Source: Aciduliprofundum boonei T469 (GTDB taxonomy: Archaea; Thermoplasmatota; Thermoplasmata; Thermoplasmatales; Aciduliprofundaceae). From it: 32,000 nt of DNA. Shown here one piece after another: positions 8,901 to 22,196 of this stretch. The position numbers were made by a program, and so were the translations under genes. Location: contig NC_013926.1 in NCBI RefSeq assembly GCF_000025665.1, positions 1,140,001-1,172,000 of the forward strand. Direction: 5' to 3'. The notes under the pieces were generated by a model. It saw only the letters and a list, made by a program, of their open reading frames with translations, did no database searches and had not been told where the DNA came from. How positions within the stretch are numbered: position 1 is the first letter of the stretch; each line of letters begins with the position of its first letter.

Positions 8901-8970
8901 GCTTTGAATTTATCTGCACCCATCAATAATTTTTTAGAGCTAGTGTTTTACGGGTTCTGTTTGAATTTGG

Positions 8971-9044
8971 ACGCCGTTTGGCGTGCTATAAAGTTTTCGG
9001 TTACCCCCTCAAAAATGCAGAGATCATGCGCCGCCGATTGGCGT
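8971..9044 (+). promoter_or_regulatory. Paired GC-rich palindromes (CGCCG-WTT-GGCGT) flanking a TATA-like box; candidate operator/promoter of the element's left-end operon
   Basis: CGCCGTTTGGCGT at 8972-8984 and CGCCGATTGGCGT at 9032-9044, exactly 60 bp apart. CTATAAAG lies at 8986-8993. The GGAGGTGG SD of the first element ORF follows at 9059. Confidence 0.4.
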
Positions 9045-9070
9045 CTGTATCGAAAAAGGAGGTGGTATGA

Positions 9071-9310
9071 ATGAAGAGGCCATATAAGTTGGAGATTTTG
9101 TGGAGCACGGGAGATTTAACGGAGAGTGGAATAACGGAAATAGAGAAAGAGCTTATAGGGGAGTATGGCTCTCTTTACATACTAACGAGGTACGAACTTA
9201 AAGGAGAGCCAAATGCTAGGCCAGTGAGCTATCAAGTGTGGGATAAGGAAGATAATCCGTTGATACCAATAGATACACAGCCCAGAGCGGAGGAATCAGC
9301 ATCTGCATGA
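9071..9310 (+). CDS. Hypothetical protein (79 aa), first gene of the element
   Basis: ORF with GGAGGTGG a few nt upstream of the ATG. No recognisable motif. Confidence 0.5.
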   Translation: MKRPYKLEILWSTGDLTESGITEIEKELIGEYGSLYILTRYELKGEPNARPVSYQVWDKEDNPLIPIDTQPRAEESASA

Positions 9311-9362
9311 TGTACTACATAGGGATGTTGGAAAAGGATGAAGTAGCACTGGAAGATGAACT

Positions 9363-10703
9363 ATGAGTACAGTGACAAATTCCTTGATTGAAGTGTTTCG
9401 TAATGGTGTTGCACTTACACCAAAAGAAGCTTTTTACATACTTCAAAGTAAAGGGATTAAAACAACATACAAGTCAGTGAGCAAGATTCTCTCTAGGCTT
9501 TATTACAGGGGAACATTAGAGCGTGCTGGAGGCAAATATATTTTTTCCTCACAAGGGCGACAGGTTGTTTCAAGCAAGGCGACATATGGAGACAATTTAA
9601 AGGTAGAGGGCGACAGTCAGAAAATGCAATATATTTCTGATTTTCCAAGCAGATATGTTTCAAATACAGTAAAATTGAAACGAAACGGCATAAGAAGTAA
9701 GCTAATGAAGAGATTTCTGGCCATATTGATGAACAACAACATAGAATTTTTTGATTCTAACAAGTTTTATCAATCTTTGCAGTCCAAGTATTGTTTCCAT
9801 CTCAATAGAAGCACTTATAGAGTGATATTACATAGGTTGAAACTCCGTGGTTTTCTAAGTTTCAGATTCAAAAGGTACTATGTGAATATGAATAAGGTGA
9901 GAGATTTCTTTAGCGTTTCAGATTTTGAGATTGGAGGTGCGAGTACCCATAGCATACCAAAAAATGGTGAAAATTACAAATTCCCCAAATACAAGGGTAC
10001 CCAACCATCCGTTTCAGAAATATTATCCGTTCGTGTCAGCGAGCATGCCCCAAGAGTGGATATAAAGATAAGCAAGTTCAGAAAAGAGATCGTAGAAGAG
10101 AAGTACAATCTTAAGGTGATAAATCCTAGAGATCCTTCTGGAAAGATGCGCTTCAAAGGAAAGCATATCAATGCCATAATAACGAAGAATGGGTATGTCA
10201 TGATAATTCCAAAAGATTCACAATGGCTAGAAGAGGTAAGGGAAGTTTTTGGAGAAGAGGCAGCTGCCAGTGCAAAGCTAAAGGGAGCTATGAAGCATAA
10301 GGAGTATGCGCTAGGAGATTTAGTCAAGCTTTACAAGTCAGAGAGGTTTGGAGCCCAGATAGATTATTCAGAGTTTAATGGGGACATAGGATTTCAAGGA
10401 GATGCGGAAAAAGTTGAGGTTGCGGATGAGATTTTTAGGCAGGAGATAATGAGCAAGGTATCTCAGAGCGCTTATCTGGCCGATATAATAGTTGATTTAG
10501 ATAGGACCTCAGAAGAGTTAAAAGAATTACTCAAAAATACGAGGGAAGAGGTCATGGCCCAAGTATTATTGAATTCTCAAGCGGTAAGTGCCATACGGGA
10601 ATCTGCGAGGGAGATAAGCAATGTTATGCGTCAATTTATAGATATATTAAAAAATGCCCAGAACGGAATGTTTTCTGGAGGAGAGGTTGAGGGTTATGCA
10701 TGA
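9363..10703 (+). CDS. Hypothetical 446-aa protein with two N-terminal wHTH-like segments and a helical/coiled C-terminus
   Basis: LTPKEAFYILQSKGIKTTYKSVSKILSRLYYRGTLER and NRSTYRVILHRLKLRGFLSF look like winged-helix recognition units. The C-terminal ~100 aa are heptad-like and rich in charged residues. No enzyme motif recognised. Confidence 0.6.
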   Translation: MSTVTNSLIEVFRNGVALTPKEAFYILQSKGIKTTYKSVSKILSRLYYRGTLERAGGKYIFSSQGRQVVSSKATYGDNLKVEGDSQKMQYISDFPSRYVSNTVKLKRNGIRSKLMKRFLAILMNNNIEFFDSNKFYQSLQSKYCFHLNRSTYRVILHRLKLRGFLSFRFKRYYVNMNKVRDFFSVSDFEIGGASTHSIPKNGENYKFPKYKGTQPSVSEILSVRVSEHAPRVDIKISKFRKEIVEEKYNLKVINPRDPSGKMRFKGKHINAIITKNGYVMIIPKDSQWLEEVREVFGEEAAASAKLKGAMKHKEYALGDLVKLYKSERFGAQIDYSEFNGDIGFQGDAEKVEVADEIFRQEIMSKVSQSAYLADIIVDLDRTSEELKELLKNTREEVMAQVLLNSQAVSAIRESAREISNVMRQFIDILKNAQNGMFSGGEVEGYA

Positions 10704-10935
10704 GCTAAAGAGATTTCAGATAAAGAGAATTATAGAGGAGGCTATGAGGATCACGAATGATATAACTCTGAGAGAGGATGTAAAGCTTGAGGACATTTAC
10801 AAGATAGCAGAGGCGGTTAAGGGAGAGAGATTAACAAAGAGGGAGAAGCTGATGATAGCAGGCATTGTGAAAAGGCACTATTCAACATATAGGGAGTTAG
10901 AGGATAATGAGTTGAAGGTTGTGGTGATGGTGTAG
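10696..10935 (+). CDS. Hypothetical protein (79 aa), translationally coupled to the upstream gene
   Basis: ATG 10696 overlaps the upstream stop (ATGCATGA) and is preceded by GGAGGAGAGGTTGAGGG. The track start at 10654 is inside the previous gene. Confidence 0.5.
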   Translation: MHELKRFQIKRIIEEAMRITNDITLREDVKLEDIYKIAEAVKGERLTKREKLMIAGIVKRHYSTYRELEDNELKVVVMV

Positions 10936-11080
10936 GAGCCAAATATAATCTATGCAACAGCATATAGTCTTTCTGCTTCTGCAAGAACTTCATTAGCAAT
11001 TGCATTTATCTTTCTATAATCTATTTTCATATTTGATTTTTCTAAAAGCACTTCTTTTACTATTACTCTTATTCTCTCTC

Positions 11081-12313
11081 TTACGTTCTCCTTTTTATTC
11101 CAATCTGCAATAGATCTTCTGGAGTAAGAATTTCAACATTTCTCATACCCTTAATTTTTCTGCGAGTAAAGAATATCTTTCTGCAGTAAAAATTCTCGGT
11201 TTTCTTCTCAAAGCTTTCTATGTCCTTTTTTGTTGCTTTTCCCCACTTAACCTCTCCAACTATTATGGGCTTGTTCCTTTTAGTTATCAGCATATCTATT
11301 TCCCTGTTTGCTTCCTTGAGGTATTCAACTCTACCTCCGTAGAGCTCTGCAAAAAGATCTGCAACGAATCTCTCTATAGCTAGGTTGTGAAGCTTCTCCA
11401 GTGTTGGTTTTACTTCATCGTAAGTGATTTCACGGGATAAGTCGTATCTAGAATCTAAGTAGTAAAACATCTTGGCTGGTTCTGAATCTATCTCGTAAAC
11501 ATACCTCTTCTTTCCGTACCTTTTTATCTCCCTCAAGATTCCCATATCTCTGAGGTTCTTTATGTAGGGAAGTACTGAAGAGCTCGCCGGGGATTTGATT
11601 ATTTTTCGTGAATATAATATGGAAGCAATTTCACGATAATCTAAATAACCTTCTCCTATCAGAGAAATTATAGAGTAATATGTCTTCGTTAACTCTCTCT
11701 CCTCCTCAGTGAATATTTCTCCTATGAGTGCTGGAATTGCGTACGGCAGAATGTTAAGTAGCGAGGGAAAGAATTTTTCAGGTGAGGTAAAAAGAGGAAT
11801 TGTCCAGGGATCACGGAGATAGGGGGCAACTTCAATAGCCTTCTCTGGAGAGAGATAAGAAAGAAGAGAATTAAGAATATCTTTTGCTCTTATTAATCCA
11901 AGGCGATAGGGATATATTATTCCCAAAAATGGTGAGTTCTTGGATAGAAGCTTTGATACAACGCTCATGCTTGAGCCGGAGAGTATAAGCCTGCCAGAAG
12001 GATGCACACTTGCAATATCGTCCCATACTTCCTCGGGCAATCTCTGAAACTCGTCAATTACCACAGTTTTTCCATCCACAAGGCCCCTCTTAACCTTTTC
12101 AATCATGCCCCCCGTATCTATTTTTTCATTCCCATTTTCCATTCTAATCCTGCCATCTCTCCGAATGAAAAAATAAATGTCATAATTTAGAAAATTCTTT
12201 ATGAGAAATGTTTTTCCAACTTTCCTCCTGCCAAAGAGCAGAATCCAGCCACCCATGCTTTTTATCTCCTCCGCCTCACTTCTGTTAACCACTATTCTTG
12301 AACCCATATTCAT
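11081..12313 (-). CDS. P-loop ATPase of the archaeal ATPase/DUF234 type with a C-terminal PD-(D/E)xK-like motif
   Basis: 410 aa. Walker A LLFGRRKVGKTF, Walker B VVIDEFQ, a central wHTH-like region (SSSVLPYIKNLRDMGILREI), and C-terminal REIDMLITKRNKPIIVGEVKWGK (D...E-V-K). Confidence 0.8.
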   Translation of the reverse strand: MNMGSRIVVNRSEAEEIKSMGGWILLFGRRKVGKTFLIKNFLNYDIYFFIRRDGRIRMENGNEKIDTGGMIEKVKRGLVDGKTVVIDEFQRLPEEVWDDIASVHPSGRLILSGSSMSVVSKLLSKNSPFLGIIYPYRLGLIRAKDILNSLLSYLSPEKAIEVAPYLRDPWTIPLFTSPEKFFPSLLNILPYAIPALIGEIFTEEERELTKTYYSIISLIGEGYLDYREIASILYSRKIIKSPASSSVLPYIKNLRDMGILREIKRYGKKRYVYEIDSEPAKMFYYLDSRYDLSREITYDEVKPTLEKLHNLAIERFVADLFAELYGGRVEYLKEANREIDMLITKRNKPIIVGEVKWGKATKKDIESFEKKTENFYCRKIFFTRRKIKGMRNVEILTPEDLLQIGIKRRT

Positions 12314-12618
12314 GAATCATGGTTCACAAATATTTAAGGGTTGTGATTTTGTGTTAGGCAATTTTGCTACGAAGTTTGAGAATAAATAGAAAGCTTTAAA
12401 GTAAAACCTTCGTTAATTTGTAAATATTTCCGCAATAGCAAGATAAATGAATAAATGGATAAATGATTTCGTTTTGGCCTAAAACGACACTATTAGAGCC
12501 CATAAATGCCTTTTCAAAGCTATGGGGTATATAAATAAACGGGCAGTTTTAGTATCGTTTAAAATAAACGAAACTAAAGATAAATCTCTCCAGGAAACTG
12601 AGTTTGACCGTAGAGCTT

Positions 12619-13380
12619 TCACCATAGCAGGTTCTTTTCCCTCTCCATCTTCCTTTTCCACTTCGCAACTTCTTCCTTCGTCACCAGCCAAGCACCCAAA
12701 TACAGATTGTAGATAGAACCATCCTCGTAAATCACATTGTTTCCATCCACCTTGTAGTGCAGTCCCGGTACCTTTGGAAAATCTATCTTCTCCTCCTTAT
12801 CTTCTTTAGCTGGAGATTCTTCAACCTGTGAGCTCTGTGTCTGGACAGCATCTGCAATCATGTCCAGCCTGTTCTTTATCTCCTCCAACTCTGGATAAAG
12901 CTCCGTTGCCACTGCCATCCCAACTCTGTCCTCTATGTTGAGAATCTCATTCGTTTTCCTGTAGTACTTCTCTCGGACATAGAGCTTCAGAGCTTCTCTC
13001 ACGATAGAGGATAAATTCTTGCCTCTCATTCTTGCTATGGACTCTATATCTTCCTTCAACTCACTGCTTACCTTTACCCGTATCTCTGGCATACTTCCCG
13101 CCATTTTTATCACCGCTTTTTCTCTCTTTAGAACCTCTATATAAAATTGTCTATGGGAGCGGAGTTCAATTTTTGCTGTATAGAACACATTCTCTTTGCA
13201 ATTTGCATTTTTGAAGTGGAAAATTTGCCAAATTTTTAGTGGAATTCTGGAAAACCCTTCTACAACATTATTTCCTTTCAATTTCTCCACTGTTTGGTGG
13301 AATTTCTCCTCCCTGAAATACACTTTTGGGATGTTGAAAATTCTTCGTTCTTTTCTGCTTCTCCTTACAAGGCACTTCAT
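12619..13380 (-). CDS. Ribbon-helix-helix domain protein (start uncertain: 13380 or 13104)
   Basis: The RHH segment MPEIRVKVSSELKEDIESIARMRGKNLSSIVREALKLYV lies mid-ORF. ATG 13104 has GGTGATAAAA upstream. ATG 13380 sits 24 nt downstream of a TTATTTATA box, which fits a leaderless start. No stop codon lies between the two. Confidence 0.6.
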   Translation of the reverse strand: MKCLVRRSRKERRIFNIPKVYFREEKFHQTVEKLKGNNVVEGFSRIPLKIWQIFHFKNANCKENVFYTAKIELRSHRQFYIEVLKREKAVIKMAGSMPEIRVKVSSELKEDIESIARMRGKNLSSIVREALKLYVREKYYRKTNEILNIEDRVGMAVATELYPELEEIKNRLDMIADAVQTQSSQVEESPAKEDKEEKIDFPKVPGLHYKVDGNNVIYEDGSIYNLYLGAWLVTKEEVAKWKRKMEREKNLLW

Positions 13381-13978
13381 TTTGGTGGAGCTCGCTTATC
13401 TTGCTATAAATAATAAATATTTTATAAGGGAACTCCACAGAATTGCGTTGAATTGCTAGCAGGATTAGATTTACACGGTGTCTTCTGGATGTACATTGTT
13501 TGTATATCCCTACGAGTATATTTCGGGAAATGATGTGCTAAGTCAATAGTATATAAAGCCTCTTTTTCAGAATTGCAAGGAAAGTATGTATTATAATACT
13601 TCAACTTACAATTTATTAATTGATTGATTAATTAATTAACTCCAAAAATAAAATAATAAGGGGAGAGATGGTATCTCACCTATAATATCTCCGTTTATTA
13701 AAAAAGAAATTATTAATTCTGGCGGGGGAGGTTTAAAATTTGGGATTGCTAGAGAAATTAGTTCTATGTTTGTTCTCTGCGATGTGGCATTTTCTTCTAA
13801 ACTTAGTGGAGCTAAATGTAATGAAGTTAGTAAAATGAAATCTTTAAAGAGATGTGGAAAGAAGGTATGTTGAGATGTAATATTACAAACGTAATTAAAG
13901 TTAAAATAAATTTTATAATAGCTTATTTCGTAAAGTATTTATAATATAAGTTGCATATCTTTTGCCGTTGCATAGAAG

Positions 13979-16900
13979 GTGGTGGAAACGAAGAGTAGTG
14001 GATTTGTGAAGGTATTGGTGATTTCCTTGGTTCTTTTAATGATTTTCAGTGGGCTTGGAGTTGTTATGAATGCCACGGGAGTTAGTACTCATAAAACATC
14101 TTTAACTTCTAATGAAGCAAATGTTGTGAAGGCGCATATACTTGATACATCCTTCTCTGATTTCAAATTCAAGAAAATTAGCCAAGGAGATATAAATAAA
14201 ATGTTAGAGCTGAGAGAAAAGATAATTGGGAGATTAAATGAAAGTGATGGTGGAAAATCATACCATAACTTACCTGAATATAATATGGAAAATTCTGCAG
14301 TTCGTATGGAACATCTATCGTATATGAATACCCGCATAGATTTTAATAATAATGCCACGCCCATGATAGATGGACATGCTACAGGATTGATCTTACCCGA
14401 TAGAAAAGAGCTTGAGAATTTGATTGGACACAAGATGATAATCGGTTTGAATACAAAGGTAAGAGAGCCAAGCAGTGTAAGGTGGGACTTAGATCCGCAT
14501 TTTCCACCGGTGGGAGATCAAGAATGGCAAGGATCTTGTACAGCTTGGGCTGTAAGCTACTATCAAAACGGGTTTTTGCAGAGAATGATTTACAACTGGA
14601 CAGATGACTCTCTCGGTCACCTTATGAGCCCTTCTTGGACTTACAACAAGGCAAATTTTGGAGAGGATGGAGGGAGTACTTTTGAAGGTAATATTGAGGT
14701 GATTGAGAGTGTTGGAGATGCCACTCTGGCCAACATGACTTATAATCCTTCAGATTATGTCTCTTGGGGAGATGAGAATGCTTGGAGAGATGCACCCAAG
14801 CATAGAATTGGGAATTATTACCTTGTTTATTTTGGAAACGATAGTGGAATTGCAACTATAAAAGAGCTATTGCAAGAAGGTTATTTGGTTACATTCGGTA
14901 TAGATGCCTCTCAATTTGGTAATGGCTTTGCAGATGGAAACTACATAATTTCTTCGCAGGAATACAATTCTAACTCTCCTAATCATGCTCAAACAATCGT
15001 GGGATATGATGATAACATAACAGATGATGGAGATGTTGGAGCGTTTAGAGTTGTAAATTCATGGGGTACAGACTGGGGAGATCATGGATTTTACTGGATT
15101 ACATACAAAGCCTTGGAGGAAAAAATATCTCAGGGTTGGCCCTATGCTCGTGTTCTAGTTCCACTCTCTCAACATCCATATAATCCAAAGCTACTTGCCA
15201 TTTGGCATTTTAGCAATCCTGGACCGAGAGATGCACCTGTAAACATAACAATAGGCTCTGAAAACTCAAGTTTATATAGAACTCCAATCTGGAATGGAGG
15301 AAATCACTATTTTCCAAGTTTTATGGCTCTTGATATTACTGAGTTCTACAATGAATGGGTAAATTCGAGCTATAAGGATAAGTTCTACCTAAAGATCGGA
15401 TCGAGCAGCAGCGGCTCTAGCACAGTGGACTCTTTCAAGATAGACTACTATCCATACGGATATAAATACTTGTGGCAAAACTCCACAGAATCTCGAGATG
15501 TTCCTGCCATCACTCCTTTAATAATAAAATCCGCTGAATTCATGCCTAGTGAATACTTTCCTTACATATATATAAATCCTATACATACTATTTTTCATAA
15601 ATACTATCATTTAAATGTGACTGATGTTATTTTAGGTAATGCAGGTAATTCCACAGATGCTTTACTTTTTTATGCTGAAGCGACAAATGGATGGTCTGTT
15701 CATCCCTCTTATAAAAAAATAGTCTTACGTTCTAATGAAATTCAGAATATTGAGCTGAATATAACACCGCCAAACAATGTTAAGTTAGGTGACAAGACAA
15801 CAATAAAAATAAAAGTTATTTCACAAAATGATACATCCAAATCATATATGTTAAATATAAAAGAGATCTACCTTTCAAATATAATATACATCGATGGAGA
15901 TTCAGATTTTAAATATCAAGCAAAAATTTTTGGCTGGCCTGGAAATGGTTCTGAAGATAACCCATACATTATATCTGGTCATAAAATAGATGCTAGTAAT
16001 ATAAGCTTTGGTATTTATATCCGCAATACTAGAGTTCATTTTATTGTAACTGACTGTGAAATATATCATAGCAGTGCTTATTACTCTTGGCCCACCCCAT
16101 ACGGTGAAGGAGTTTGGCTTTATAATGTATGGTATGCCAAAATATACAACAACATCTTTCATAATAACGGAAATCATACACTTCTAAGAGGTGGCGATGG
16201 TATATTCTTACAATACTCCCTCTATTCCCTAGTTTTCAACAATATAGTTTATAATAATTGGAATGGAATTACATTGTATTACTCTTATGAAAATATAATA
16301 AAAAGTAACATTATTAAAAATAATGGAGAATCAGGCATATCTATTTTATCTTCAGGTAAAAATAGCTTATATCATAATAATATGACTAACAACGGAATCT
16401 TTTTATATGGGGGATTTAATACATATATAACACAGAAAATTCCTATCAATAATACAATAAATGGCAAATCCGTATTTTACTATATAAATAGTAATCACAA
16501 TTTTACAGCTCCACCAAATATTGGTGAAATTATTTTAGGAAATGTTAGTAATTTAAAAATAGAAAATACAACCTTACTAGGCCTAAACTATGGTATTCAA
16601 ATAGCCTACTCATCTAATGTTACAATAATAAATTCAACCGTAGAAGGTATCAGTATTCAGGGTTCAAATAATATAACAGTCGACAACACACATTGTGAAG
16701 GTGGTATAGACGGTGTAGTAACTATGGGATCTTCAAAAATTTTGATAAAAAACAGCACTTTTAAAAATAAGCAGATTGGAGTGTACTTTTTTGATACTGA
16801 AAAAAGTATTGCAGTAAACAATACATTTTATGATTGTGAGAGTGGAATTGAAATAGTTTTCTCTAGTAATAATTTAGTTAAAAATAATCATATTGTTGGA

Positions 16901-17707
16901 AATTATAATGAAGATGGAATTTATGTATATTATTCACAAAAAAATTCAATAGAAAATAATACCATTTATTATGAAAAATATGGCGTATTTTTAAATAGAT
17001 ATTCAAAATACAATATATTGATATATAATACTATTTCTAAAAGCTCTAAATATGGGGTGTATATGGCCTCTTTCTCGGAGTATAATATAATTTACAATAA
17101 CTCATTCTATTACAATCACGGCTCAGGAGATACTTACAATTCGTCGCATATTCAAGCGCGAGATGATGGCTCTGATAATTGGTGGAATTCCACATCAGGT
17201 ATAGGCAATTACTGGCAAGATTGGGCAAACAACAATAATAGCAATGATAAAAATGGAGATGGTATTGTGGACTGGCCCTACAATATAGACGGCTCTGCAG
17301 GTGCGAAGGATTATTATCCACTAAGATGCTCGGTAGAGGAATCTACACCATCTCACCCTTTTAATTTAAATGCTAAAACAGGTAATGGTTATGTAAATTT
17401 AAGCTGGAATCAACCACTATGTAATGGGAGTTCTAATATTACATTATACAAAATATATCGCAATGGTACTCTAATAGCAACAGTACCTGCTACTCAACTT
17501 TGGTACAACGACACTAATGTAGTTCCTGGAGTTAATTACTCATACTATGTCACTGCAGTAAATTCAGTTGGAGAGTCACAGCCCAGCAACACCGTAAAAG
17601 CTACACCAACAGGGGCCATACCAGAGTTCTCAAGTGCGTGGATAGCAATAATAACAATACTATCCTTGCTTGTAGTATTTCGTAGGAGGAAAGTCAAGAA
17701 AACCTGA
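13979..17707 (+). CDS. Secreted, surface-anchored multidomain protein: papain-like (C1) cysteine protease + beta-sandwich domains + right-handed beta-helix repeats + Fn3-like domain + PEF-CTERM-like anchor
   Basis: 1242 aa with a GTG start after GAAGGTGG. Signal/anchor VKVLVISLVLLMIFSGLGVV. Protease motifs DQEWQGSCTAWAVSYY, SPNHAQTIVGYDD and VVNSWGTDWGDHGFYW. About 450 aa of N/G/I-rich ~22-aa repeats ending DKNGDGIVDWPYNI..DYYPL. Fn3-like YVNLSWNQP..YSYYVTAVNSVGES. C-terminus PEFSSAWIAIITILSLLVVFRRRKVKKT. Confidence 0.85.
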   Translation: MVETKSSGFVKVLVISLVLLMIFSGLGVVMNATGVSTHKTSLTSNEANVVKAHILDTSFSDFKFKKISQGDINKMLELREKIIGRLNESDGGKSYHNLPEYNMENSAVRMEHLSYMNTRIDFNNNATPMIDGHATGLILPDRKELENLIGHKMIIGLNTKVREPSSVRWDLDPHFPPVGDQEWQGSCTAWAVSYYQNGFLQRMIYNWTDDSLGHLMSPSWTYNKANFGEDGGSTFEGNIEVIESVGDATLANMTYNPSDYVSWGDENAWRDAPKHRIGNYYLVYFGNDSGIATIKELLQEGYLVTFGIDASQFGNGFADGNYIISSQEYNSNSPNHAQTIVGYDDNITDDGDVGAFRVVNSWGTDWGDHGFYWITYKALEEKISQGWPYARVLVPLSQHPYNPKLLAIWHFSNPGPRDAPVNITIGSENSSLYRTPIWNGGNHYFPSFMALDITEFYNEWVNSSYKDKFYLKIGSSSSGSSTVDSFKIDYYPYGYKYLWQNSTESRDVPAITPLIIKSAEFMPSEYFPYIYINPIHTIFHKYYHLNVTDVILGNAGNSTDALLFYAEATNGWSVHPSYKKIVLRSNEIQNIELNITPPNNVKLGDKTTIKIKVISQNDTSKSYMLNIKEIYLSNIIYIDGDSDFKYQAKIFGWPGNGSEDNPYIISGHKIDASNISFGIYIRNTRVHFIVTDCEIYHSSAYYSWPTPYGEGVWLYNVWYAKIYNNIFHNNGNHTLLRGGDGIFLQYSLYSLVFNNIVYNNWNGITLYYSYENIIKSNIIKNNGESGISILSSGKNSLYHNNMTNNGIFLYGGFNTYITQKIPINNTINGKSVFYYINSNHNFTAPPNIGEIILGNVSNLKIENTTLLGLNYGIQIAYSSNVTIINSTVEGISIQGSNNITVDNTHCEGGIDGVVTMGSSKILIKNSTFKNKQIGVYFFDTEKSIAVNNTFYDCESGIEIVFSSNNLVKNNHIVGNYNEDGIYVYYSQKNSIENNTIYYEKYGVFLNRYSKYNILIYNTISKSSKYGVYMASFSEYNIIYNNSFYYNHGSGDTYNSSHIQARDDGSDNWWNSTSGIGNYWQDWANNNNSNDKNGDGIVDWPYNIDGSAGAKDYYPLRCSVEESTPSHPFNLNAKTGNGYVNLSWNQPLCNGSSNITLYKIYRNGTLIATVPATQLWYNDTNVVPGVNYSYYVTAVNSVGESQPSNTVKATPTGAIPEFSSAWIAIITILSLLVVFRRRKVKKT

Positions 17708-17863
17708 GGTTCAAAACCACAGATTGCAAGGAAATTAAGCTTTACAATATAATCTTGCATATTCTCTCACATAGACAATTTAAAATGACGCCAGAAACAA
17801 ATCTTTATGATTAGCTTTGAATCTATTGAGGGAAAAATATATTCCATGAGGAAATAACAAATA

Positions 17864-17878
17864 GAAAAGTTTAAAATA
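17864..17878 (+). promoter_or_regulatory. BRE/TATA promoter (GAAAAG-TTTAAAATA), 21 nt before ATG 17900
   Basis: A/T-rich TATA box preceded by a purine-rich BRE-like hexamer. The spacing is typical of leaderless archaeal mRNAs. Confidence 0.45.
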
Positions 17879-17899
17879 GAGTGGGGAGATGTATAAATA

Positions 17900-18106
17900 A
17901 TGAGCAAGGAGATCAAGGACAAGAACTATGAGTTCTACATAAATGCGGATTTGAGTGAATATGCTGGGAAGTGGATTGCGATAGTGGATGGCAAGGTTGT
18001 GGCCAGTGGGGAAGATCCTGAGGAAGTATATATGAAAGCAGAGAAAAAAGGTGGTAAGGACATATCCCTAGCGTATGTGCCAACTGATGATCTCTTGATT
18101 TTGTAA
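17900..18106 (+). CDS. Small DUF5678-like protein (68 aa)
   Basis: GKWIAIVDGKVVASGEDPEEVYMKAEKKG is the signature I recall for the small archaeal DUF5678 family. The function is unknown. Confidence 0.55.
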   Translation: MSKEIKDKNYEFYINADLSEYAGKWIAIVDGKVVASGEDPEEVYMKAEKKGGKDISLAYVPTDDLLIL

Positions 18107-18130
18107 ATTATTCTTCCTGCTATATCGTAA

Positions 18131-18145
18131 GAAAACTTTAAAATA
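18131..18145 (+). promoter_or_regulatory. BRE/TATA promoter (GAAAAC-TTTAAAATA), 20 nt before ATG 18166
   Basis: Near-identical to the 17864-17902 cassette, including AGATGTnTAAATA just before the ATG. Confidence 0.45.
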
Positions 18146-18165
18146 TAAGCAAGAGATGTGTAAAT

Positions 18166-18321
18166 ATGGAAGATGTGGGCACGATAGAGAGATTGTACAA
18201 GAAGCTGGACGAGGAAGAGCCAACTGAGGAGGAGCTAAAAATAATAAAAGAGGGTAGAGAAGAGATAAATAAAGGGCAATATGTAAAGCTTGAAGATGCT
18301 TTGGAAATTTTAGATGAGTGA
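18166..18321 (+). CDS. Small acidic antitoxin-like protein (51 aa; below the track's 60-aa cutoff)
   Basis: ATG 18166 to TGA 18319-18321 gives MEDVGTIERLYKKLDEEEPTEEELKIIKEGREEINKGQYVKLEDALEILDE. Its C-terminal pattern is like the aRelB-like protein at 19935 (..G..V.LE....L). It has its own TATA box. Confidence 0.45.
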   Translation: MEDVGTIERLYKKLDEEEPTEEELKIIKEGREEINKGQYVKLEDALEILDE

Positions 18322-18455
18322 AAATAGCTAGTAATCGCTCATAGAAGGAAAATACATTAACTCATCAATGGTAGAAAGTTATAAAGAAAAATTTCCCACC
18401 GGAGTAAGACAAAAATGTTAAATATGTCTTAGTTGTATAGAACAAATTGGTTGAA

Positions 18456-19739
18456 ATGCTCTTGGAAGAGGTCATAGCTGAGTTTCATCGCTTTGGAATT
18501 CCGAAATTGAAGGAGAGGAGCTTAGATTTACCTTTGAATTTGAACAAAGCAATCACTCTTGTTGGACTACGAAGAACGGGAAAGACATATCTATTGTACC
18601 AAACGATACAAAAATTGATAGAAAGGGGAATGAGAATAGAGCGGCTCTTTTACATAAACTTTGAAGATGAGAGAATAGGAAATATGGACTCCAAAGATTT
18701 ATCTCAAATTGTGGAAATATATAGAAAATACAATCCTGATGCAAAGAGCATGTATCTTTTCTTGGATGAAATACAGAATGTAAAAGGTTGGGAGAAATTC
18801 GTGCGCAGGCTTTTGGAGAGAAGAAATGCAAGGCTCTTCATCACAGGCTCATCTTCCAAACTTCTAAGCAAGGAAATTGCAACGACTCTTAGAGGGAGAA
18901 GCTTGAGTTATCATCTTTTTCCTTTATCGTTCAAAGAGTTCTTAAAGTTCAAGGAGTTTAAGCTCAGAGAACCTTTGATAGAAGATGATAGGGGAATGAT
19001 AAAGAAGTATCTAGATGAGTACACCAACTTTGGAGGATTTCCAGAGATTGTAAATTACGAAGAGATACTGAAGATAAGAACTCTCCAAGAATATCTAGAT
19101 TTGATAGTTTACAAGGACTTGGTAGAGAGATACGGAATAAAGAAAATTGGTGTGATGAAGGCATTGATAAAAGCCACAGTGAAGAATTTTGGAAACAGAA
19201 TATCTGTTAAGAAACTCTACAATAGCCTTGGGTCTGGAAATGAGCTTAGCAAGAACAAGATCTATGAGTATTTCTCGTACCTTGATGACATTGGGTTTGT
19301 TATTCCAGTGAGAAAATTTAGCTACAGCGAGATTGAATCTATGAGGAGCATGCCCAAATTATATGTGGTGGACAATGGATTTCCCACACTCTATGGAATG
19401 AAAGATATGGGAAGGAGGATAGAGAATATAGTTGCAGTGGAGCTGATGCGTAGAAAATACTACTACAATCCCACACAAGAATTTGCCTACTATATGGCGG
19501 GAAACAAAGAGGTGGACTTCGTTGTCTACGAGGGGCAAAGAGTTAAAGAATTAATACAAGTTTGTTACGATGTTAGCGATATAAACACCAAAAACAGAGA
19601 GATAGACGCCTTGATAAGAGCTTCCAAAGAGCTGAAATGCAATGATTTAAAAATAATCACATGGGACCATGAGGGCCAAGAGGAAGTAGAGGGAAAGAAA
19701 ATAGAGTATGTTCCACTGTGGAAGTGGCTTCTTGAGTAA
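18456..19739 (+). CDS. AAA ATPase of the AAA_14/DUF4143 (COG1373-like) type
   Basis: Walker A VGLRRTGKTYLL and Walker B YLFLDEIQ. C-terminal EVDFVVYEGQRVKELIQVCYD segment. The start is ATG 18456 or TTG 18447. Confidence 0.8.
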   Translation: MLLEEVIAEFHRFGIPKLKERSLDLPLNLNKAITLVGLRRTGKTYLLYQTIQKLIERGMRIERLFYINFEDERIGNMDSKDLSQIVEIYRKYNPDAKSMYLFLDEIQNVKGWEKFVRRLLERRNARLFITGSSSKLLSKEIATTLRGRSLSYHLFPLSFKEFLKFKEFKLREPLIEDDRGMIKKYLDEYTNFGGFPEIVNYEEILKIRTLQEYLDLIVYKDLVERYGIKKIGVMKALIKATVKNFGNRISVKKLYNSLGSGNELSKNKIYEYFSYLDDIGFVIPVRKFSYSEIESMRSMPKLYVVDNGFPTLYGMKDMGRRIENIVAVELMRRKYYYNPTQEFAYYMAGNKEVDFVVYEGQRVKELIQVCYDVSDINTKNREIDALIRASKELKCNDLKIITWDHEGQEEVEGKKIEYVPLWKWLLE

Positions 19740-19897
19740 CATGATAAGTTAGGTCTAAGAGCTTTCAAAAACATCCATATTTTGTCCTCTTTGAAGGAAA
19801 ATTTGCCCGATATTGAAGTTTCTCCTTGAGGGTGGTATAATTACACCTGTAAAGGTGAAAAACGCTCTCAAATCAAAAAATTTGTAAAAATCCCTTA

Positions 19898-19912
19898 GAA
19901 AAGATTAAAATA
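19898..19912 (+). promoter_or_regulatory. BRE/TATA promoter (GAAAAG-ATTAAAATA), 22 nt before ATG 19935
   Basis: Same architecture and spacing as the promoters at 17864 and 18131. This supports ATG 19935 rather than GTG 19920 as the start. Confidence 0.45.
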
Positions 19913-19934
19913 CAATAAGGTGATAGTAAAGGTG

Positions 19935-20150
19935 ATGGCAACGAATGGCACTGTAGAGATTTTAGAACGACTTGAGGGGGAGATACAAGACATAAAGAAG
20001 ATGCTAGAGAGATTGGAGACTATGCTAATTGGTGAGGAAGAAATATCGGAAGAGGAGAGAAAAGAGCTTGAAGAGAGGATAAAAGAGGCAAAGAATGGAG
20101 ACACAGTGAGCTTGGAAGAGTTTCTCCGTGATTTAAATGTACAGAGTTGA
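19935..20150 (+). CDS. relB: aRelB-like antitoxin (71 aa)
   Basis: Helical acidic protein (LERLEGEIQDIKKMLERLETMLIGEEEISEEERKELEERIKEAKNGDTVSLEEFLRDL). It overlaps by 14 nt the ATG of a RelE-like reading frame. Confidence 0.6.
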   Translation: MATNGTVEILERLEGEIQDIKKMLERLETMLIGEEEISEEERKELEERIKEAKNGDTVSLEEFLRDLNVQS

Positions 20151-20419
20151 GATACATCGCAAAGCCCAGAAAGAGATAAAGTACTTGCCGGAAGATATAA
20201 GAGAAGGTTTTGAATTTAATTATCAATCTGCAATACGCTCCGTATCCTTTTAAAGAGTATGACCTTAAGAAGATTAAAGGATTGAAAGATGTTTATAGGG
20301 TGAGAATAGGAGATTATAGGGTAATCTATCTTGTTAATGATGATCTCAAGAAAGTTACAATTTTAGAGGTAAAAAGGAGAGAAAAAGCATATAGAGATTT
20401 AAAAAATAGAATGCCCTGA
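20137..20419 (+). pseudogene. relE: aRelE/ParE-type toxin gene disrupted by a frameshift in a T-run
   Basis: Frame 1 from ATG 20137 reads MYRVEIHRKAQKEIKYLPEDIREGF... and stops at 20251-20253. Frame 2 from ~20201 reads ..LNLIINLQYAPYPFKEYDLKKIKGLKDVYRVRIGDYRVIYLVNDDLKKVTILEVKRREKAY. The two halves together make one typical RelE. The switch point is GGTTTTG (20206-20212). Confidence 0.7.
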
Positions 20420-20421
20420 GA

Positions 20422-20709
20422 TTATCTTCTCAGCTTCTCAAACAGCCAAGGCTTGTCCTGGGCAAGAGTAATTATTATGCCTTCTAGGTCCTCATCCTCC
20501 GGGTATGTGAGTAATATATTTTCCACCATTTCCTTCATTAGCTTTGCTGGGAGATCTATTGTATGCGGGCCAATCTGAATAAGGTATCTTTCAGATGCTC
20601 TTCTAATCTTCACAAAATTTGTGGTATCCATGCCCTTTATTTCCACCAATCTGGTTATCTCCTCTCCGCCGGATAGCAGAAAGGAGAATCTTACCACATC
20701 ATCACTCAT
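20422..20709 (-). CDS. Hypothetical protein (95 aa), coupled to the upstream wHTH gene
   Basis: Its ATG overlaps the upstream stop (ATGAGTGA, 8 nt). No recognisable motif. Confidence 0.5.
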   Translation of the reverse strand: MSDDVVRFSFLLSGGEEITRLVEIKGMDTTNFVKIRRASERYLIQIGPHTIDLPAKLMKEMVENILLTYPEDEDLEGIIITLAQDKPWLFEKLRR

Positions 20710-21010
20710 CGTTCCTCACCTCTCTTACAAGTATTTTAACATCCTTCTTCAAAATCACATAATCCTTACCTTCAATCCTTATAATTTCTATTATTCCACT
20801 GTACATCAGCTTGTAAAGATGGGGCCTTATAGAGTTTCTCTCCACTGGCAAATCTTGATCTTTTAGAACCTTCAAAAGCTCGGGAATTCGCATTTTTTGT
20901 TTTTTCTTTAAAGCTTGCAGAACCGCAGCCCGTATGTAGTGAGAGAGTCCGTCAGCTAGCACTTCTATGGTGTAAACATCTTTAACTTCTTCATAATTAT
21001 TCATCATCAT
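20702..21010 (-). CDS. Winged-helix (ArsR-like) transcription regulator, divergent from the integrase
   Basis: IRAAVLQALKKKQKMRIPELLKVLKDQDLPVERNSIRPHLYKLMYSGIIEI is a wHTH pattern. The ATG triplet run at 21010/21007/21004 lies 17-23 nt from a TATATATAT box (21028-21036). The track start at 21076 would leave only 24 bp before the integrase ATG. Confidence 0.65.
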   Translation of the reverse strand: MMMNNYEEVKDVYTIEVLADGLSHYIRAAVLQALKKKQKMRIPELLKVLKDQDLPVERNSIRPHLYKLMYSGIIEIIRIEGKDYVILKKDVKILVREVRNDE

Positions 21011-21100
21011 GTAGGTAAGACGAAAGGTATATATATGTTTTTTGCATGATGTCAAAATGTCATTAAATTTAGACATTTAGAAAATGATGAGGGAAGTGAG

Positions 21101-22168
21101 ATGAACATAAGAAAGATAAAAGAGGTGGTAGACGAGGTAAGTAAGGCGTTAGAAAATGGAAACTATGAAGATGCAAGAGATTTGATAGAGAATCTCAGGG
21201 CCATGCTAAAAAGCACAACAGAGTCTAAGGGGTGGCAGAAAAACAAGGATGAATACTTTGCATACTTGAAAACTACGCGGGAAATAAAAACTGTGAAGGA
21301 TCACAGAATCAAGCTTGAAAAAGCAGAAGAGTTTTTGAAGGAAAAGTACGGATATCTTCCAAATCCAGCCTCTATAACGGAGAAAGATGCTAGAGAGTAC
21401 CTTTATTGGTTAAAGCTCAAGGGATACGATAGGAACTATTATCGCAGAGTTTTCCAAGTTTTTATCCAGTTTTTGGCATTCTCTATGAACCCCAGAGCTT
21501 TTAAAATGAGATTTTTAGTGCCAAGAGAGGATAAGAAGCCCATTCTCTACATGGCTGTGGAGGATGTTAAAAAGGCACTTGAGATGTTTGGAGAGCAGAA
21601 TTTTGAAGAGCTAAAGCATAGGACTATGATATGGATCTACGCGTGGACGGGTATAAGATATTCGGAGGTGATAGTCTTAAAGAAGGATGACATAGATTTG
21701 AAAAACAATCTTATCATTGTGAGAGAAGGAAAAGGTGGGCATGAGAGAGTAGTATACATACCTCCAGTGTTGAAGGGTCTTCTTGAAAAATACATTGAAA
21801 GATGGGAAAAGTACATGAAACTGAGAGAGGAGATGGGGTTGAGAACTTCAGAATACCTGTTCTTCTGGATCAAAAGAAACGGGGAGATAATGGATCCTTA
21901 CTGGGGATTTAGAGGATACTTCACACATTTTGCAGATAGGGCAAAGGAAGTAGGCATAGAGAAATTCAATATAAAGAAGTTCAGGGCTACTATAGCTAAG
22001 TTGCTTAGGGAGATAGGAGGTGTAGATCTATCAACAGTTAGTGCTCAGCTTGGACATAGTAGAACTTCCACAACCGAAGAATTCTACCATAGAATGGGAC
22101 CTGTTGGATTGGAAAAACCTTATGAAAAAGTTGAAAAACTTCTTTTGGGTGATAAAAAGGATGATTAG
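21101..22168 (+). CDS. int: Tyrosine recombinase / integrase (intact)
   Basis: 355 aa. Catalytic-type residues appear in order: AWTGIRYSE (R), GKGGHER (K), KKFRATIAK (R), LGHSRTSTTEEFY (H..Y). The stop is 14 nt before attR. Confidence 0.9.
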   Translation: MNIRKIKEVVDEVSKALENGNYEDARDLIENLRAMLKSTTESKGWQKNKDEYFAYLKTTREIKTVKDHRIKLEKAEEFLKEKYGYLPNPASITEKDAREYLYWLKLKGYDRNYYRRVFQVFIQFLAFSMNPRAFKMRFLVPREDKKPILYMAVEDVKKALEMFGEQNFEELKHRTMIWIYAWTGIRYSEVIVLKKDDIDLKNNLIIVREGKGGHERVVYIPPVLKGLLEKYIERWEKYMKLREEMGLRTSEYLFFWIKRNGEIMDPYWGFRGYFTHFADRAKEVGIEKFNIKKFRATIAKLLREIGGVDLSTVSAQLGHSRTSTTEEFYHRMGPVGLEKPYEKVEKLLLGDKKDD

Positions 22169-22182
22169 GTTATTATTCTATA

Positions 22183-22196
22183 CTGCCGGCGGCGCT
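22183..22196 (+). repeat. attR core (CTGCCGGCGGCGCT), a displaced copy of the tRNA-Asn 3' end
   Basis: Exact 14-mer, identical to 8887-8900. It is followed by ATTTTTGT, an oligo-T tract expected of the original tRNA terminator. Confidence 0.75.

Follow-up and report, generated by a model that had tools for sequence, protein, structure and literature searches.

A predicted surface-displayed papain-family protease carried by a tRNA-Asn-integrating element of Aciduliprofundum boonei

Introduction

The window analyzed here, a stretch of 32,000 nucleotides from Aciduliprofundum boonei T469, raises the question of what a large multidomain cysteine protease is doing among the genes of a mobile element. 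As had been pointed out in a preliminary description, the open reading frame concerned (13979..17707, + strand, stop codon included) is the largest in the ORF list of the window; its 1242-aa product is predicted to be secreted and anchored at its C-terminus. A. boonei is a thermoacidophile from a deep-sea vent. The organism is a peptide-utilizing anaerobe and a scavenger of fermentable peptides (PMC3282477), and high expression of an extracellular C01A peptidase has been reported from the related Thermoprofundales (PMC6461988). Multidomain C1A proteins have been recorded in Thermoplasmatota, although they were explicitly left unanalyzed (Kordis & Turk 2023, PMC10380794).

Results and discussion

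Modular organization of the protein

The gene begins with a GTG codon, a start supported by the N-termini of the orthologue P0002 and the paralogue P0009, which align from residue 1. Profile searches and confident structure models (pLDDT 84 and 90) agree on the architecture originally proposed, i.e., a C1 protease, a β-helix, an Fn3 domain and a PEF-CTERM tail. All modules are given below with their + strand coordinates. The motif DKNGDGIVDWPYNI, cited in the preliminary description, was confirmed in the protein.

Residues 1-33 (13979..14077) represent a signal peptide or signal anchor, as first suggested, with a K-rich n-region and a hydrophobic core (residues 4-22 by Kyte-Doolittle analysis); a cleavage site is predicted, and the segment is 68% identical to the N-terminus of P0009. 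Hydrophobic segments are confined to the two termini of the protein. The following N-terminal extension (residues 34-165, 14078..14473), defined by the structure model and alignment, is a possible propeptide, with a confident helix at about residues 69-90 and a low-confidence linker at about residues 92-123; a near-invariant motif, DGHxTGL..P, spans residues 130-140. It gave no I29, other Pfam or PDB sequence match, and zymogen control would operate without a recognizable I29-type propeptide.

The papain-family (C1) peptidase domain (residues 166-400, 14474..15178; PF00112) is directly followed by β-sandwich domain 1 (residues 401-525, 15179..15553), which is kept family-wide, with Pro446 and Asp452 invariant in the family alignment; a PDB sequence search gave no relative of this domain. 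The structure model then delineates a second, Ig-like β-sandwich (residues 526-640, 15554..15898), which is hypervariable (40% amino-acid identity to the sister-element orthologue) and shows a weak match to choice_anch_T. Next comes a right-handed parallel β-helix of the NosD/PbH1 type (residues 641-1115, 15899..17323), identified by profiles, periodicity and the structure model. The Fn3-like module of the initial reading is a genuine fibronectin type III domain (residues 1116-1210, 17324..17608), scoring 32 bits with PF00041 (curated cut-off 25) and matching the fold of titin Fn3 at a TM of about 0.8 in Foldseek. The protein ends in the PEF-CTERM sorting signal (residues 1211-1242, 17609..17704), composed, as previously noticed, of IPEF (P1215-E-F), a hydrophobic helix and RRRKVKK, and recognized over residues 1214-1238 by TIGR03024 (arch_PEF_CTERM) at 33.2 bits (curated cut-off 23).

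The peptidase domain

The catalytic motifs indeed occur in the canonical order of the papain fold. Cys187 (codon 14537-14539) lies within QGSCTAWA, His336 (14984-14986) within NHAQTIVGYDD and Asn360 (15056-15058) within NSWGTDWGDHGFYW, and all three, together with the oxyanion-hole residue Gln181 (14519-14521; all four codons on the + strand), are invariant in a 61-sequence homologue alignment. Gln181, in GDQEW, is the equivalent of papain Gln19 and precedes Cys187 by six residues; the Gln of QGSC was ruled out for this position. The Peptidase_C1 profile scores 32.5 bits, compared to a curated cut-off of 20.7. The best structural match in Foldseek is xylellain (E 2e-12), and cathepsins match at target-normalized TM values of 0.76-0.82. 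Relative to the sister element, the dN/dS of the domain is 0.11, i.e., it is under purifying selection. The complete conserved residue set and this selection suggest that the peptidase is likely to be catalytically active.

Like the present domain, xylellain of Xylella fastidiosa (PDB 3ois; MEROPS C1A) displays the papain fold, the Gln/Cys/His/Asn order and an N-terminal extension, but it is a short single-domain enzyme, whereas the A. boonei protein adds a family-specific β-sandwich and about 700 aa of stalk and anchor. We know of no multidomain archaeal C1A protein that has been characterized biochemically. The cysteine peptidases of sediment Thermoplasmatota (Thermoprofundales/MBG-D) are likewise secreted, C01A-type enzymes of peptide-fermenting relatives and are expressed in situ (PMC6461988). 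They are, however, chromosomal, about 930 aa in length and carried on PKD stalks, as opposed to the element-borne β-helix and Fn3 arrangement found here.

The β-helix stalk

The preliminary description recognized a β-helix of about 450 aa built of repeats of approximately 22 residues. Its extent is now put at about 475 aa, and the assignment is borne out by the Beta_helix (138 bits) and NosD (120 bits) profiles, both above their curated cut-offs, and by a periodicity of z = 4.3 at offset 22, where a control region shows no comparable peak. The helix terminates in the cap motif GNYW..DKNGDGIVDWPY..DYYPL, and the GC content within the region is only 27% at 16001-17000. The β-helix constitutes a hypervariable cassette, with 45% identity between sister elements and saturated synonymous sites. 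The hypervariable stalk is also compatible with an interaction or recognition function.

The Foldseek matches of the helix include the AlgE4 epimerase, a galactosidase, phage tailspikes and depolymerases, and there is a weak match to the AlgG profile. Such matches could indicate a bifunctional enzyme, in which the helix serves as a polysaccharide lyase, hydrolase or epimerase (in the manner of tailspike depolymerases or AlgE) and the protein degrades glycoprotein matrices. We consider this very unlikely: the matches are all generic (TM 0.14-0.37, rmsd above 12 Å), the helix body contains no invariant residue, acidic, basic or otherwise, across the homologue alignment, its four invariant columns all being located in the C-terminal cap, and a conserved active site is difficult to reconcile with the saturated divergence (45% identity) seen between sister elements. 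Because of this lack of invariant body residues, the low sister identity and the generic fold matches, we infer that the helix is not an enzyme; it would act as a rigid spacer and probably also as a glycan- or surface-binding module. It shares its fold, PbH1 repeat and C-terminal cap with NosD/CASH-type surface proteins and phage tailspikes, but differs from them in that a specific structural match is absent (TM 0.37 or lower), catalytic residues are not conserved, and the helix serves as a stalk that links a protease to a membrane anchor.

The stalk might alternatively be the business end of an adhesin, binding glycans on minerals, biofilm matrix or cells, with the protease serving mainly for self-maturation or shedding. 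NosD/PbH1-type β-helices and Fn3 domains are both frequent in adhesin-like surface proteins of archaea, the variable part of the protein is precisely the stalk cassette, and the paralogues P0003 and P0009 consist of a β-helix and Fn3 without the protease, so that the stalk is a functional unit by itself. On the other hand, no part of the protein is better conserved or more widely distributed than the protease together with β-sandwich domain 1. This pair occurs with many unrelated stalks (PKD, CARDB, Big, Fn3), an indication that the stalk serves the protease and not vice versa. Since binding specificity is not deducible from the fold matches either, an adhesin appears quite unlikely.

Predicted glycosylation and anchoring

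An earlier hand count of roughly forty N-x-S/T sequons proved close to the mark: the protein contains 39, compared to 20.8 ± 4.0 in composition-preserving shuffles, the highest count in 2000 shuffles being 34. Each region, taken separately, has about twice the expected number, and the reversed motif S/T-x-N, used as a control, shows no excess. Given this real enrichment, the protein is presumably N-glycosylated.

The C-terminus conforms to the PEF-CTERM/archaeosortase C sorting system (TIGR03024, IPR017474/IPR022504), reportedly described by Haft et al. in 2012, in that a tripartite arrangement of motif, helix and basic cluster occupies the extreme C-terminus of a surface protein with a signal peptide and scores above the curated cut-off. 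Tails above the cut-off also occur in P0009 and P0002, several proteins of the A. boonei genome carry PEF-CTERM tails, and so do about 35 of the 120 top homologues. Lipid anchoring of the protein is conceivable. Archaeosortase processing, lipid attachment and covalent anchoring are known only from PGF-CTERM/ArtA of Haloferax volcanii, the analogue that has been studied by experiment, and not from PEF-CTERM.

The mobile element and its cargo

That the gene is element-borne, as originally claimed, is strongly confirmed. An integrated element of 13.3 kb (8900..22195) is supported by the att repeats at its ends, by an unoccupied site in a related genome and by a contig spanning the attP junction. 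Its target is the tRNA-Asn(GTT) gene (8825..8899, + strand), whose 3' end includes the attL core CTGCCGGCGGCGCT (8886-8899); the attR core, CTGCCGGCGGCGCT (22182..22195, + strand), lies 13 nt past the integrase stop codon. The repeats are 14 nt long, at a spacing of 13,296 bp. The DNA beyond attR matches the sequence directly 3' of tRNA-Asn in a syntenic related genome, L001, which presents an empty site without the element. The attP junction is found on contig L089 of a draft assembly of the same strain, T469, and the element therefore exists as a circle or tandem copy. The tyrosine integrase gene (21101..22168, + strand; PF00589 63 bits, phrog_1 integrase 7e-32) is intact after integration, and its product is XerA-like, with a score below the equivalog cut-off. 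The protease gene is accessory cargo of this tRNA-Asn-integrating, tyrosine-integrase element.

The hallmark of the element family is a 446-aa ORFan (9363..10703, + strand), the sole gene common to the element, L104 and L105; L106 is a further variant that carries it. Searches of Pfam, NCBIfam, PHROGs, PADLOC and PDB, and of plasmid, phage and IMG/VR collections, gave no match to the ORFan. Among 5.8 billion proteins it is represented by only 5 clusters, and a set of 1.84 billion yields only 3 representatives; the ORFan is possibly involved in replication. The backbone includes an AAA_14 ATPase (11081..12313, - strand; 96% identity in the sister element). Divergent from the protease gene is a ribbon-helix-helix (Arc/CopG-like) regulator (12619..13380, - strand); the intervening gap of 598 bp (13381-13978) gave no Rfam match and holds just short ORFs (45-87 aa) overlapping on either strand, which were not counted as genes. 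Directly 3' of the protease gene lies a gene for a small DUF5678 protein (17900..18106, + strand), also present downstream of P0002, followed by an AAA_14 + DUF4143 ATPase (18447..19739, + strand), a putative antitoxin (19920-20150, + strand) and a ParE-family toxin (20210-20419, + strand; ParE_toxin 32.1 bits, cut-off 23).

The element resembles the pNOB8/pTN3-type archaeal tRNA-integrating elements in its terminal integrase, the att site overlapping the tRNA 3' end, the circular form, and the toxin-antitoxin and ATPase cargo. In that type, as opposed to the SSV type, the tyrosine integrase gene stays intact on integration. The present element departs from this type in its att core of only 14 nt, in a hallmark gene without detectable relatives among known plasmids or viruses, and in that no replication or transfer function can be named.

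The cargo position bears on a further suggestion of the preliminary description, remodelling of the host envelope through S-layer processing or superinfection exclusion. In this reading the protease would trim host S-layer proteins or receptors and thereby block adsorption of competing viruses or elements. The gene shares the variable region of the element with the ParE toxin and the ATPase, which falls into the PADLOC candidate defence family PDC-S01 (364 bits); the sister element has an extra N6-methyltransferase at the same position; the protease is the only exported or membrane protein of the element; and a hypervariable stalk is expected of an arms-race surface. The protein itself, however, is unmatched in PADLOC, the gene is missing from some elements of the family, a protease at the distal tip would be far from the membrane and the S-layer plane, and in other archaea the module is overwhelmingly chromosomal and set in metabolic neighbourhoods. 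S-layer processing or superinfection exclusion thus found no specific support and is unlikely, the family context favouring extracellular proteolysis.

The spike-like topology (signal peptide and C-terminal anchor) of the only membrane protein of the element, a hypervariable, receptor-binding-like β-helix, a circular or tandem form and hallmark-gene relatives that head long ORFan arrays resembling virus or plasmid genomes would also suit a device displayed on vesicles or virus-like particles carrying the circular 13.3-kb DNA, attaching to the recipient S-layer and penetrating it by proteolysis. Yet genes for capsid, packaging or small membrane proteins are absent from the element, and IMG/VR, phage and plasmid collections yielded no close relatives. 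The variability resides in the stalk and not in the distal tip, the same architecture occurs in chromosomal paralogues and homologues, and the PEF-CTERM tail is shared with the ordinary paralogue P0009. Such a role is highly improbable.

Homologues and mosaic evolution

The combination of domains had not been recognized at first and was implied to be rare. This impression was mistaken: P0002, P0004, P0005, P0006 and P0008 are near-full-length homologues, over 300 surface proteins of archaea, mostly chromosomal and many of them PEF-CTERM-tailed, start with the C1 module, and C1 + β-helix and C1 + PEF-CTERM arrangements are met repeatedly in Thermoplasmatota-type archaea, for the most part at ordinary chromosomal locations. 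The host itself possesses a chromosomal paralogue, P0052, with C1 and β-helix modules, which makes the benefit of an additional, element-borne copy less evident.

Between sister elements, dS is about 0.2 in backbone genes and about 0.6-0.8 at the ends of the protease gene, whereas its middle is saturated; in addition, the last 86 residues (1157-1242) are 100% identical to those of the same-genome paralogue P0009. By these comparisons, the gene is a mosaic, in which the protease and anchor ends were kept and the β-helix middle was swapped, with exchange of the stalk cassette by recombination with paralogous surface-protein genes.

Proposed function

We propose, with a probability of roughly 0.55, that the protein is a surface-displayed papain-family cysteine endopeptidase that degrades proteins, carried as accessory cargo in peptide-fermenting A. 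boonei. The protein would be exported via Sec and then N-glycosylated. Its C-terminal helix would keep it in the membrane, as a plain transmembrane anchor without archaeosortase C; were archaeosortase C present in the genome, it would cleave off the helix and leave the protein covalently anchored. Because the anchor is the C-terminus, the protease would sit at the distal tip of a stalk made up of the Ig-like sandwich, the β-helix and the Fn3 domain, about 20 nm out and past the S-layer. In this position it would break down proteins of the environment into peptides for the obligately peptide-fermenting host, and cysteine cathepsin-type chemistry would fit the acidic, reducing habitat.

This nutritional role draws on host physiology and on the context of distant homologues, not on the present gene: C1 + PKD + PEF-CTERM homologues adjoin C11 peptidase and amino-acid catabolism genes, and distant PEF-CTERM family members adjoin C11 peptidase, TldD/PmbA, aminotransferase and ammonia-lyase genes. 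Rather than being unique, the protein belongs as a well-formed member to an archaeal protease family that is widespread but unstudied, and the family context, with its peptidase and amino-acid-catabolism neighbours and peptide-fermenting host, points to extracellular proteolysis.

Modular organization of the protein

The largest open reading frame of the window (13979..17707, + strand, GTG start) encodes a protein of 1242 amino acids, which we regard, with a probability slightly better than even (about 0.55), as an exported, N-glycosylated, membrane- or sortase-anchored and active cysteine endopeptidase, whose role would be to break down external proteins for a host that ferments peptides. The ORF lies where the preliminary description had placed it, its rank as the largest is borne out by the ORF lists, and all of the motifs quoted in that description occur in the translated protein. 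The proposed architecture of C1 peptidase, beta-helix, fn3 and PEF-CTERM also held, as all four models exceed their curated cut-offs. The fn3 profile scores 32 bits (cut-off 25), and the helical region is matched by Beta_helix (PF13229, 138 bits), NosD (PF05048, 120 bits) and TIGR03804 repeats.

The modular order can be followed in two AlphaFold models, covering residues 40-660 (pLDDT 84.3, pTM 0.77) and 637-1242 (pLDDT 90.4, pTM 0.82). The signal sequence (residues 1-33) is followed by an N-terminal extension (residues 34-165), composed of one confident helix and a disordered linker and bearing a near-invariant DGHxTGL..P motif. Next come the modelled papain-fold domain (residues 166-400), a first beta-sandwich that is kept family-wide (residues 401-525), a second, Ig-like sandwich in the model (residues 526-640), a right-handed beta-helix (residues 641-1115) that closes in the cap motif GNYW…DKNGDGIVDWPY…DYYPL, and a modelled fn3 domain (residues 1116-1210). 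The C-terminus consists of a PEF motif (P1215-E-F, residues 1215-1217), a terminal helix and the basic run RRRKVKK; the hydrophobic stretch spans residues 1213-1231.

The estimate of roughly forty N-x-S/T sequons proved accurate: 39 were counted, where composition-preserving shuffles gave 20.8 +/- 4.0. Sequons are enriched about twofold both within the beta-helix and elsewhere in the protein, and since the reversed motif shows no excess, the enrichment is not an artefact of composition or of the repeats.

The peptidase module

The Peptidase_C1 profile PF00112 matches residues 175-377 with 32.5 bits (gathering score 20.7). Gln181, Cys187, His336 and the segment Asn360-Ser-Trp-Gly are invariant across alignments of 18 and 61 sequences, and the catalytic order Gln-Cys-His-Asn aligns to Gln19/Cys25/His159/Asn175 of papain; Cys187 is the sole cysteine of the domain. 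In the HMMER alignments the GSC(T) motif stands opposite the xylellain segment 'GSCTANA'; the H and NSW motifs align with Der p 1 as well as with xylellain. The model shows a two-lobed papain fold, for which Foldseek returns xylellain as the best PDB match of the protease half (E 2e-12), with cathepsins S/K/L and Der p 1 at target-normalised TM scores of 0.76-0.82. Judged by these alignments and the model, the protein is predicted to be a papain-family C1A peptidase with a complete catalytic set. The N-terminal extension (~130 aa), a possible inhibitory propeptide that would make the enzyme a zymogen, gave no match in I29/Pfam and PDB sequence searches, and the PDB sequence search found no relatives of the sandwich domains.

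The beta-helix

A periodicity of 22 residues is evident in the helix region (z = 4.3), with no such peak in a control region, and the helix half is modelled at pLDDT 90 as regular three-strand coils. Its fold matches in PDB and BFVD are generic only, comprising NosD, AlgE4, tailspikes and helices of giant viruses and phages (TM <= 0.37, rmsd > 12 A), and the columns invariant among homologues are confined to the C-terminal cap. For these two reasons we read the beta-helix of the model as a probable stalk or binding module rather than an enzyme. If the helix were instead a glycanase, lyase or epimerase, the protein could be a bifunctional glycanase-protease; conserved groove residues and a specific structural match are both lacking, the AlgG model reaches 18.8 bits against a cut-off of 700, and this reading has less support than that of an anchored endopeptidase. 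The GC content of the helix region is 27%, compared to ~37% for the window, which partly reflects its Asn/Ile/Tyr-rich sequence.

Export and the C-terminal signal

The N-terminal hydrophobic segment (residues 4-22) is preceded by a Lys-containing n-region and is predicted to be a signal peptide. At the other end, the PEF-CTERM model TIGR03024 matches residues 1214-1238 of 1242 with 33.2 bits (cut-off 23), and the tail is under purifying selection (dN/dS 0.14). P0009, a T469 paralogue that carries a beta-helix, fn3 and PEF-CTERM without the protease, scores 33.6 bits on the same model; at least two PEF-CTERM proteins of T469 thus stand above the cut-off.

The PEF-CTERM signal is recognized by archaeosortase C, according to a review (PMC5244752). 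None of the archaeosortase Pfam families occurs among the neighbors of six C1-family loci, and NCBIfam scans for an archaeosortase were negative in four unannotated genes of L085/L086 and in four genes, three of them unannotated, of L082, all adjoining or close to loci of the family. The literature searched for archaeosortase contained no data on the DHVE2. Indirect indications of an archaeosortase are two, the purifying selection on the tail and the signal in at least two T469 proteins. As a substrate of archaeosortase C, the protein would lose its C-terminal helix and become covalently (lipid) anchored. We know of no experimental test of PEF-CTERM sorting by archaeosortase C, and the present protein would be a large, readily detected candidate substrate in a cultivable organism.

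Relatives of the protease

The protease and sandwich module stands at the head of at least 346 proteins from Thermoplasmatota, Methanomassiliicoccales, Promethearchaeota and others. The stalks of this family are interchangeable (PKD, CARDB, Big, fn3 or beta-helix modules) and the anchors differ; 'IPEF' followed by a helix and a basic end is found in ~35 of the best 120 homologues. Near-full-length homologues are P0002 (62% identity, 97% coverage), P0004 (58% identity), P0005 (54%), and P0006 and P0008 (44% each). T469 itself codes for a chromosomal paralogue with C1 and beta-helix modules (P0052), which sits amid housekeeping genes. More distant C1 + PKD + PEF-CTERM members share a conserved chromosomal neighborhood (C11 peptidase, TldD/PmbA, aminotransferase and aromatic ammonia-lyase), and a C1 + Big_5 + PEF member is located amid ribosomal and housekeeping genes. 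Since near-full-length homologues exist and C1 + beta-helix/PEF members recur, the architecture is uncharacterized yet not unique. Multidomain archaeal C1A proteins have been recorded but left unanalysed (PMC10380794), and an extracellular C01A peptidase of the Thermoprofundales is highly expressed (PMC6461988). The protein belongs with these known, uncharacterized multidomain surface C1A peptidases of archaea that bear archaeosortase-type tails.

IMG/VR contains no close relatives of the protein, and the family alignment retrieved 14 loci weakly from that database. The best of these, on a 38-kb viral contig (L090, 9914-11065), codes for a short C1 peptidase (383 aa, one domain) that shares 45% identity with the query catalytic domain. 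Xylellain-type C1A genes have been reported in Caudoviricetes, and this locus agrees.

Two further observations concern the family. The P0007 locus (L083, 8955-12448), next to urocanase and a DUF835/STAND ATPase, bears a 56-59% identical homologue that a frameshift around residue 258 divides in two; the split reflects either a pseudogene or an error of assembly. A subset of family members without a transmembrane anchor (P0071, P0072, P0077, P0088, P0102, P0048, P0051, P0068 and P0079) ends in a conserved motif of the '…GYWLYN…V.WTV.Y' type, which appears to be an unrecognized C-terminal module or sorting signal.

The mobile element

The protease gene had been described as element-borne, and att repeats, an empty site and an attP junction were all found. 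The element is flanked by housekeeping genes, with MoaA to one side, and glutamate dehydrogenase together with TIP49 to the other. Its attL lies in the 3' end of a tRNA-Asn(GTT) gene that terminates at 8899: an exact 14-nt att core (CTGCCGGCGGCGCT) occupies 8886-8899 and recurs at 22182-22195, beginning 13 nt past the stop codon of the tyrosine integrase (21101-22168) at the element end. In an element-free Aciduliprofundum MAG (L001), collinearity with the window extends as far as the tRNA and resumes at ~22392, the intervening 13.3 kb being absent, and the 45 nt after its tRNA-Asn are the 45 nt after the attR of the window. In a second MAG (L002/L081), a related element with the same gene order and extra cargo occupies the same tRNA and carries the closest orthologue of the protease. 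In an independent draft of T469 (DS990543.1, L089), position 22196 of the window is joined to 8884 via the att core with 99.9% identity, the junction reading …TTCTATACTGCCGGCGGCGCT/GCTTTGAATTT…. This is the attP junction, formed by an excised circle or, with lower probability, by a tandem copy; a tandem duplication would yield the identical sequence. The empty site, the related element at the same tRNA and the attP junction are three independent tests, which confirm that the element is mobile.

Besides the integrase and the protease, the element codes for an orphan 446-aa protein (9363-10703), two AAA_14 ATPases, an RHH regulator, a DUF5678 protein and a toxin of the ParE family preceded by a putative antitoxin (19920-20419). 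One of the ATPases (AAA_14+DUF4143, 18447-19739) matches the PADLOC candidate defence family PDC-S01 with 364 bits; the protease itself has no PADLOC match, and its membership of a defence system was rejected on that ground. PHROGs matched only the integrase and a repressor, with no genes for virion, packaging or conjugation, and a provirus was rejected for want of capsid, terminase or portal genes in that search.

Hydrophobic segments occur in no element ORF other than the protease. This bears on the proposal that the protein is a device for attachment of vesicles or particles, for which there is less support than for an external peptidase. In its fullest form, which we consider very unlikely, the protein would be the element's own transmission device, C-terminally anchored in vesicles that A. 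boonei sheds with the circular 13.3-kb DNA inside; the hypervariable helix would recognize surface glycans of the recipient and the distal protease would breach its proteinaceous S-layer. Against this, the element holds no other membrane protein, no structural gene and no phage or IMG/VR match, and an assignment to the pleolipovirus-like or plasmid-vesicle class was discarded on the same observations, the lack of PHROG structural matches included. Were the transmission reading true, the element would be a minimal, capsid-less, vesicle-borne 'one-spike' element, representing a new family defined by the 446-aa orphan gene.

Relatives of the 446-aa protein form five clusters in 5.8 billion proteins and three in 1.84 billion representatives, and none was found in PLSDB, INPHARED or IMG/VR. 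As a hallmark, the gene defines a narrow and highly variable family of DHVE2 elements, in one lineage of which the protease gene is accessory cargo. The element is of the conventional tRNA-integrating type and is undescribed in the literature searched.

At three other loci (L104, 10001-21242; L105, 1-14577; L106, 1-9559), relatives of the 446-aa gene head long, otherwise unrelated, co-directional ORFan arrays. Among the products encoded there are a DUF2341 protein, a resolvase, HicAB/ParE pairs and proteins of 550-660 aa, and in L105 an integrase directly precedes the hallmark gene. From their gene content, these arrays look like an undescribed DHVE2 virus or plasmid family. The extra cargo of the sister element L081 (97-2703 and 6752-9550), absent from the window, comprises an 868-aa HsdM_N/N6_Mtase/YgjP-like fusion and a 932-aa ORFan without an NCBIfam match, the latter immediately upstream of the protease gene, at the position of a 598-bp gap in the window.

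A. boonei is, to our knowledge, the only well-studied cultured member of the DHVE2, an abundant vent lineage, and we know of no genetic system for it. Because its attP/attB sites are defined, its integrase is intact and a circular form is indicated, the element is a candidate integrative or shuttle vector for this group.

Neighboring features of the window

Just outside attR (22293-23345) is a 350-aa ORF, rich in N-x-S/T sequons and with a hydrophobic segment at the N-terminus, which has no Pfam or NCBIfam match and is kept in L001 (65-75% identity by tblastx); its sequence suggests that it is probably another exported protein. Between the tRNA-Asn and the orthologue of this ORF, L001 contains a gene for a 701-aa molybdopterin oxidoreductase of the formate-dehydrogenase-like type (10877-12982, - strand), missing at the T469 counterpart (22196-22292), beside the molybdenum-cofactor gene moaA.

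An Rfam tRNA call of 120 nt (23399-23518, 45 bits), for which ARAGORN made no call, probably represents a tRNA gene with an intron, close downstream of the right flank of the element. The tRNA-Asn of L002 (~1584-1700) was also missed by ARAGORN, because its anticodon-loop region carries a 41-nt insertion that T469 and L001 lack; the insertion is possibly a tRNA intron, present or absent among close relatives. Further along, an IS5-family transposase gene (27413-28243; transpos_IS5_2, 129.8 bits in NCBIfam; DDE_Tnp_1) represents a strain-specific insertion, since the whole surrounding region (~27352-28298) is missing from the otherwise collinear L001.

Mosaic evolution of the protease gene

The window element and the sister element L081 were compared gene by gene. 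The backbone ATPase genes are 96-97% identical (dS ~0.2), and the ends of the protease gene (signal/pro region, C1, fn3 and PEF) are 78-87% identical (dS ~0.6-0.8), with a dN/dS of 0.11 for the C1 domain. Sandwich 1 retains 78% protein identity with synonymous sites near saturation (dS ~1.9), and sandwich 2 and the beta-helix are 40-45% identical with synonymous sites saturated. Both kinds of site diverge far more in this central part than in the genes on either side, which marks it as a swapped-in, distantly related cassette and not the product of mere fast evolution. Diversifying selection was rejected as the only explanation for the divergence of the stalk, given saturated synonymous sites against a backbone dS of ~0.2; cassette exchange fits better.

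The last 86 residues of the protein are 100% identical to P0009, compared to 82% for residues 1041-1120 and 20-58% for the helix body. This identity of the tail next to a diverged helix body bears the signature of a recent gene conversion, which suggests exchange between the element and another locus. With its catalytic head and anchor retained, its stalk exchanged and its tail converted from that of a chromosomal paralogue, the gene is a clear case of exchange between element and chromosome among the surface proteins of archaea.

The protease gene is flanked by an imperfect direct repeat of 27 nt (22/27 identical; 13572-13598 and 17723-17749). It is not kept in the sister element, the test that gave it an expectation of zero is circular, the pattern having been derived from its own two copies, and the repeat is probably due to chance.

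Proposed function

The preliminary description was sound as to the architecture and the carriage by an element, and its more specific speculation on function was not supported. It had envisaged remodelling of the host envelope, superinfection exclusion or adhesion; both element-driven surface remodelling or exclusion and an adhesin with a self-processing protease have less support than an anchored endopeptidase acting on external proteins. In the case of the endopeptidase, the C-terminal anchor would place the fn3 module, the beta-helix and the two sandwiches in this order outward from the membrane, with the protease at the tip; the stalk would supply reach and perhaps binding. Papain-type enzymes work best in acidic, reducing conditions, and acidic, reducing surroundings would suit the chemistry of this protein. 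A. boonei, a thermoacidophilic member of the DHVE2, is a peptide-utilizing anaerobe that scavenges fermentable peptides (PMC3282477).

The protein would be a thermo- and acid-adapted cysteine protease for reducing conditions, of possible biotechnological interest. Multidomain C1A peptidases of this kind are numerous in the sediment and vent archaea that have been implicated in protein remineralization, yet they are uncharacterized.
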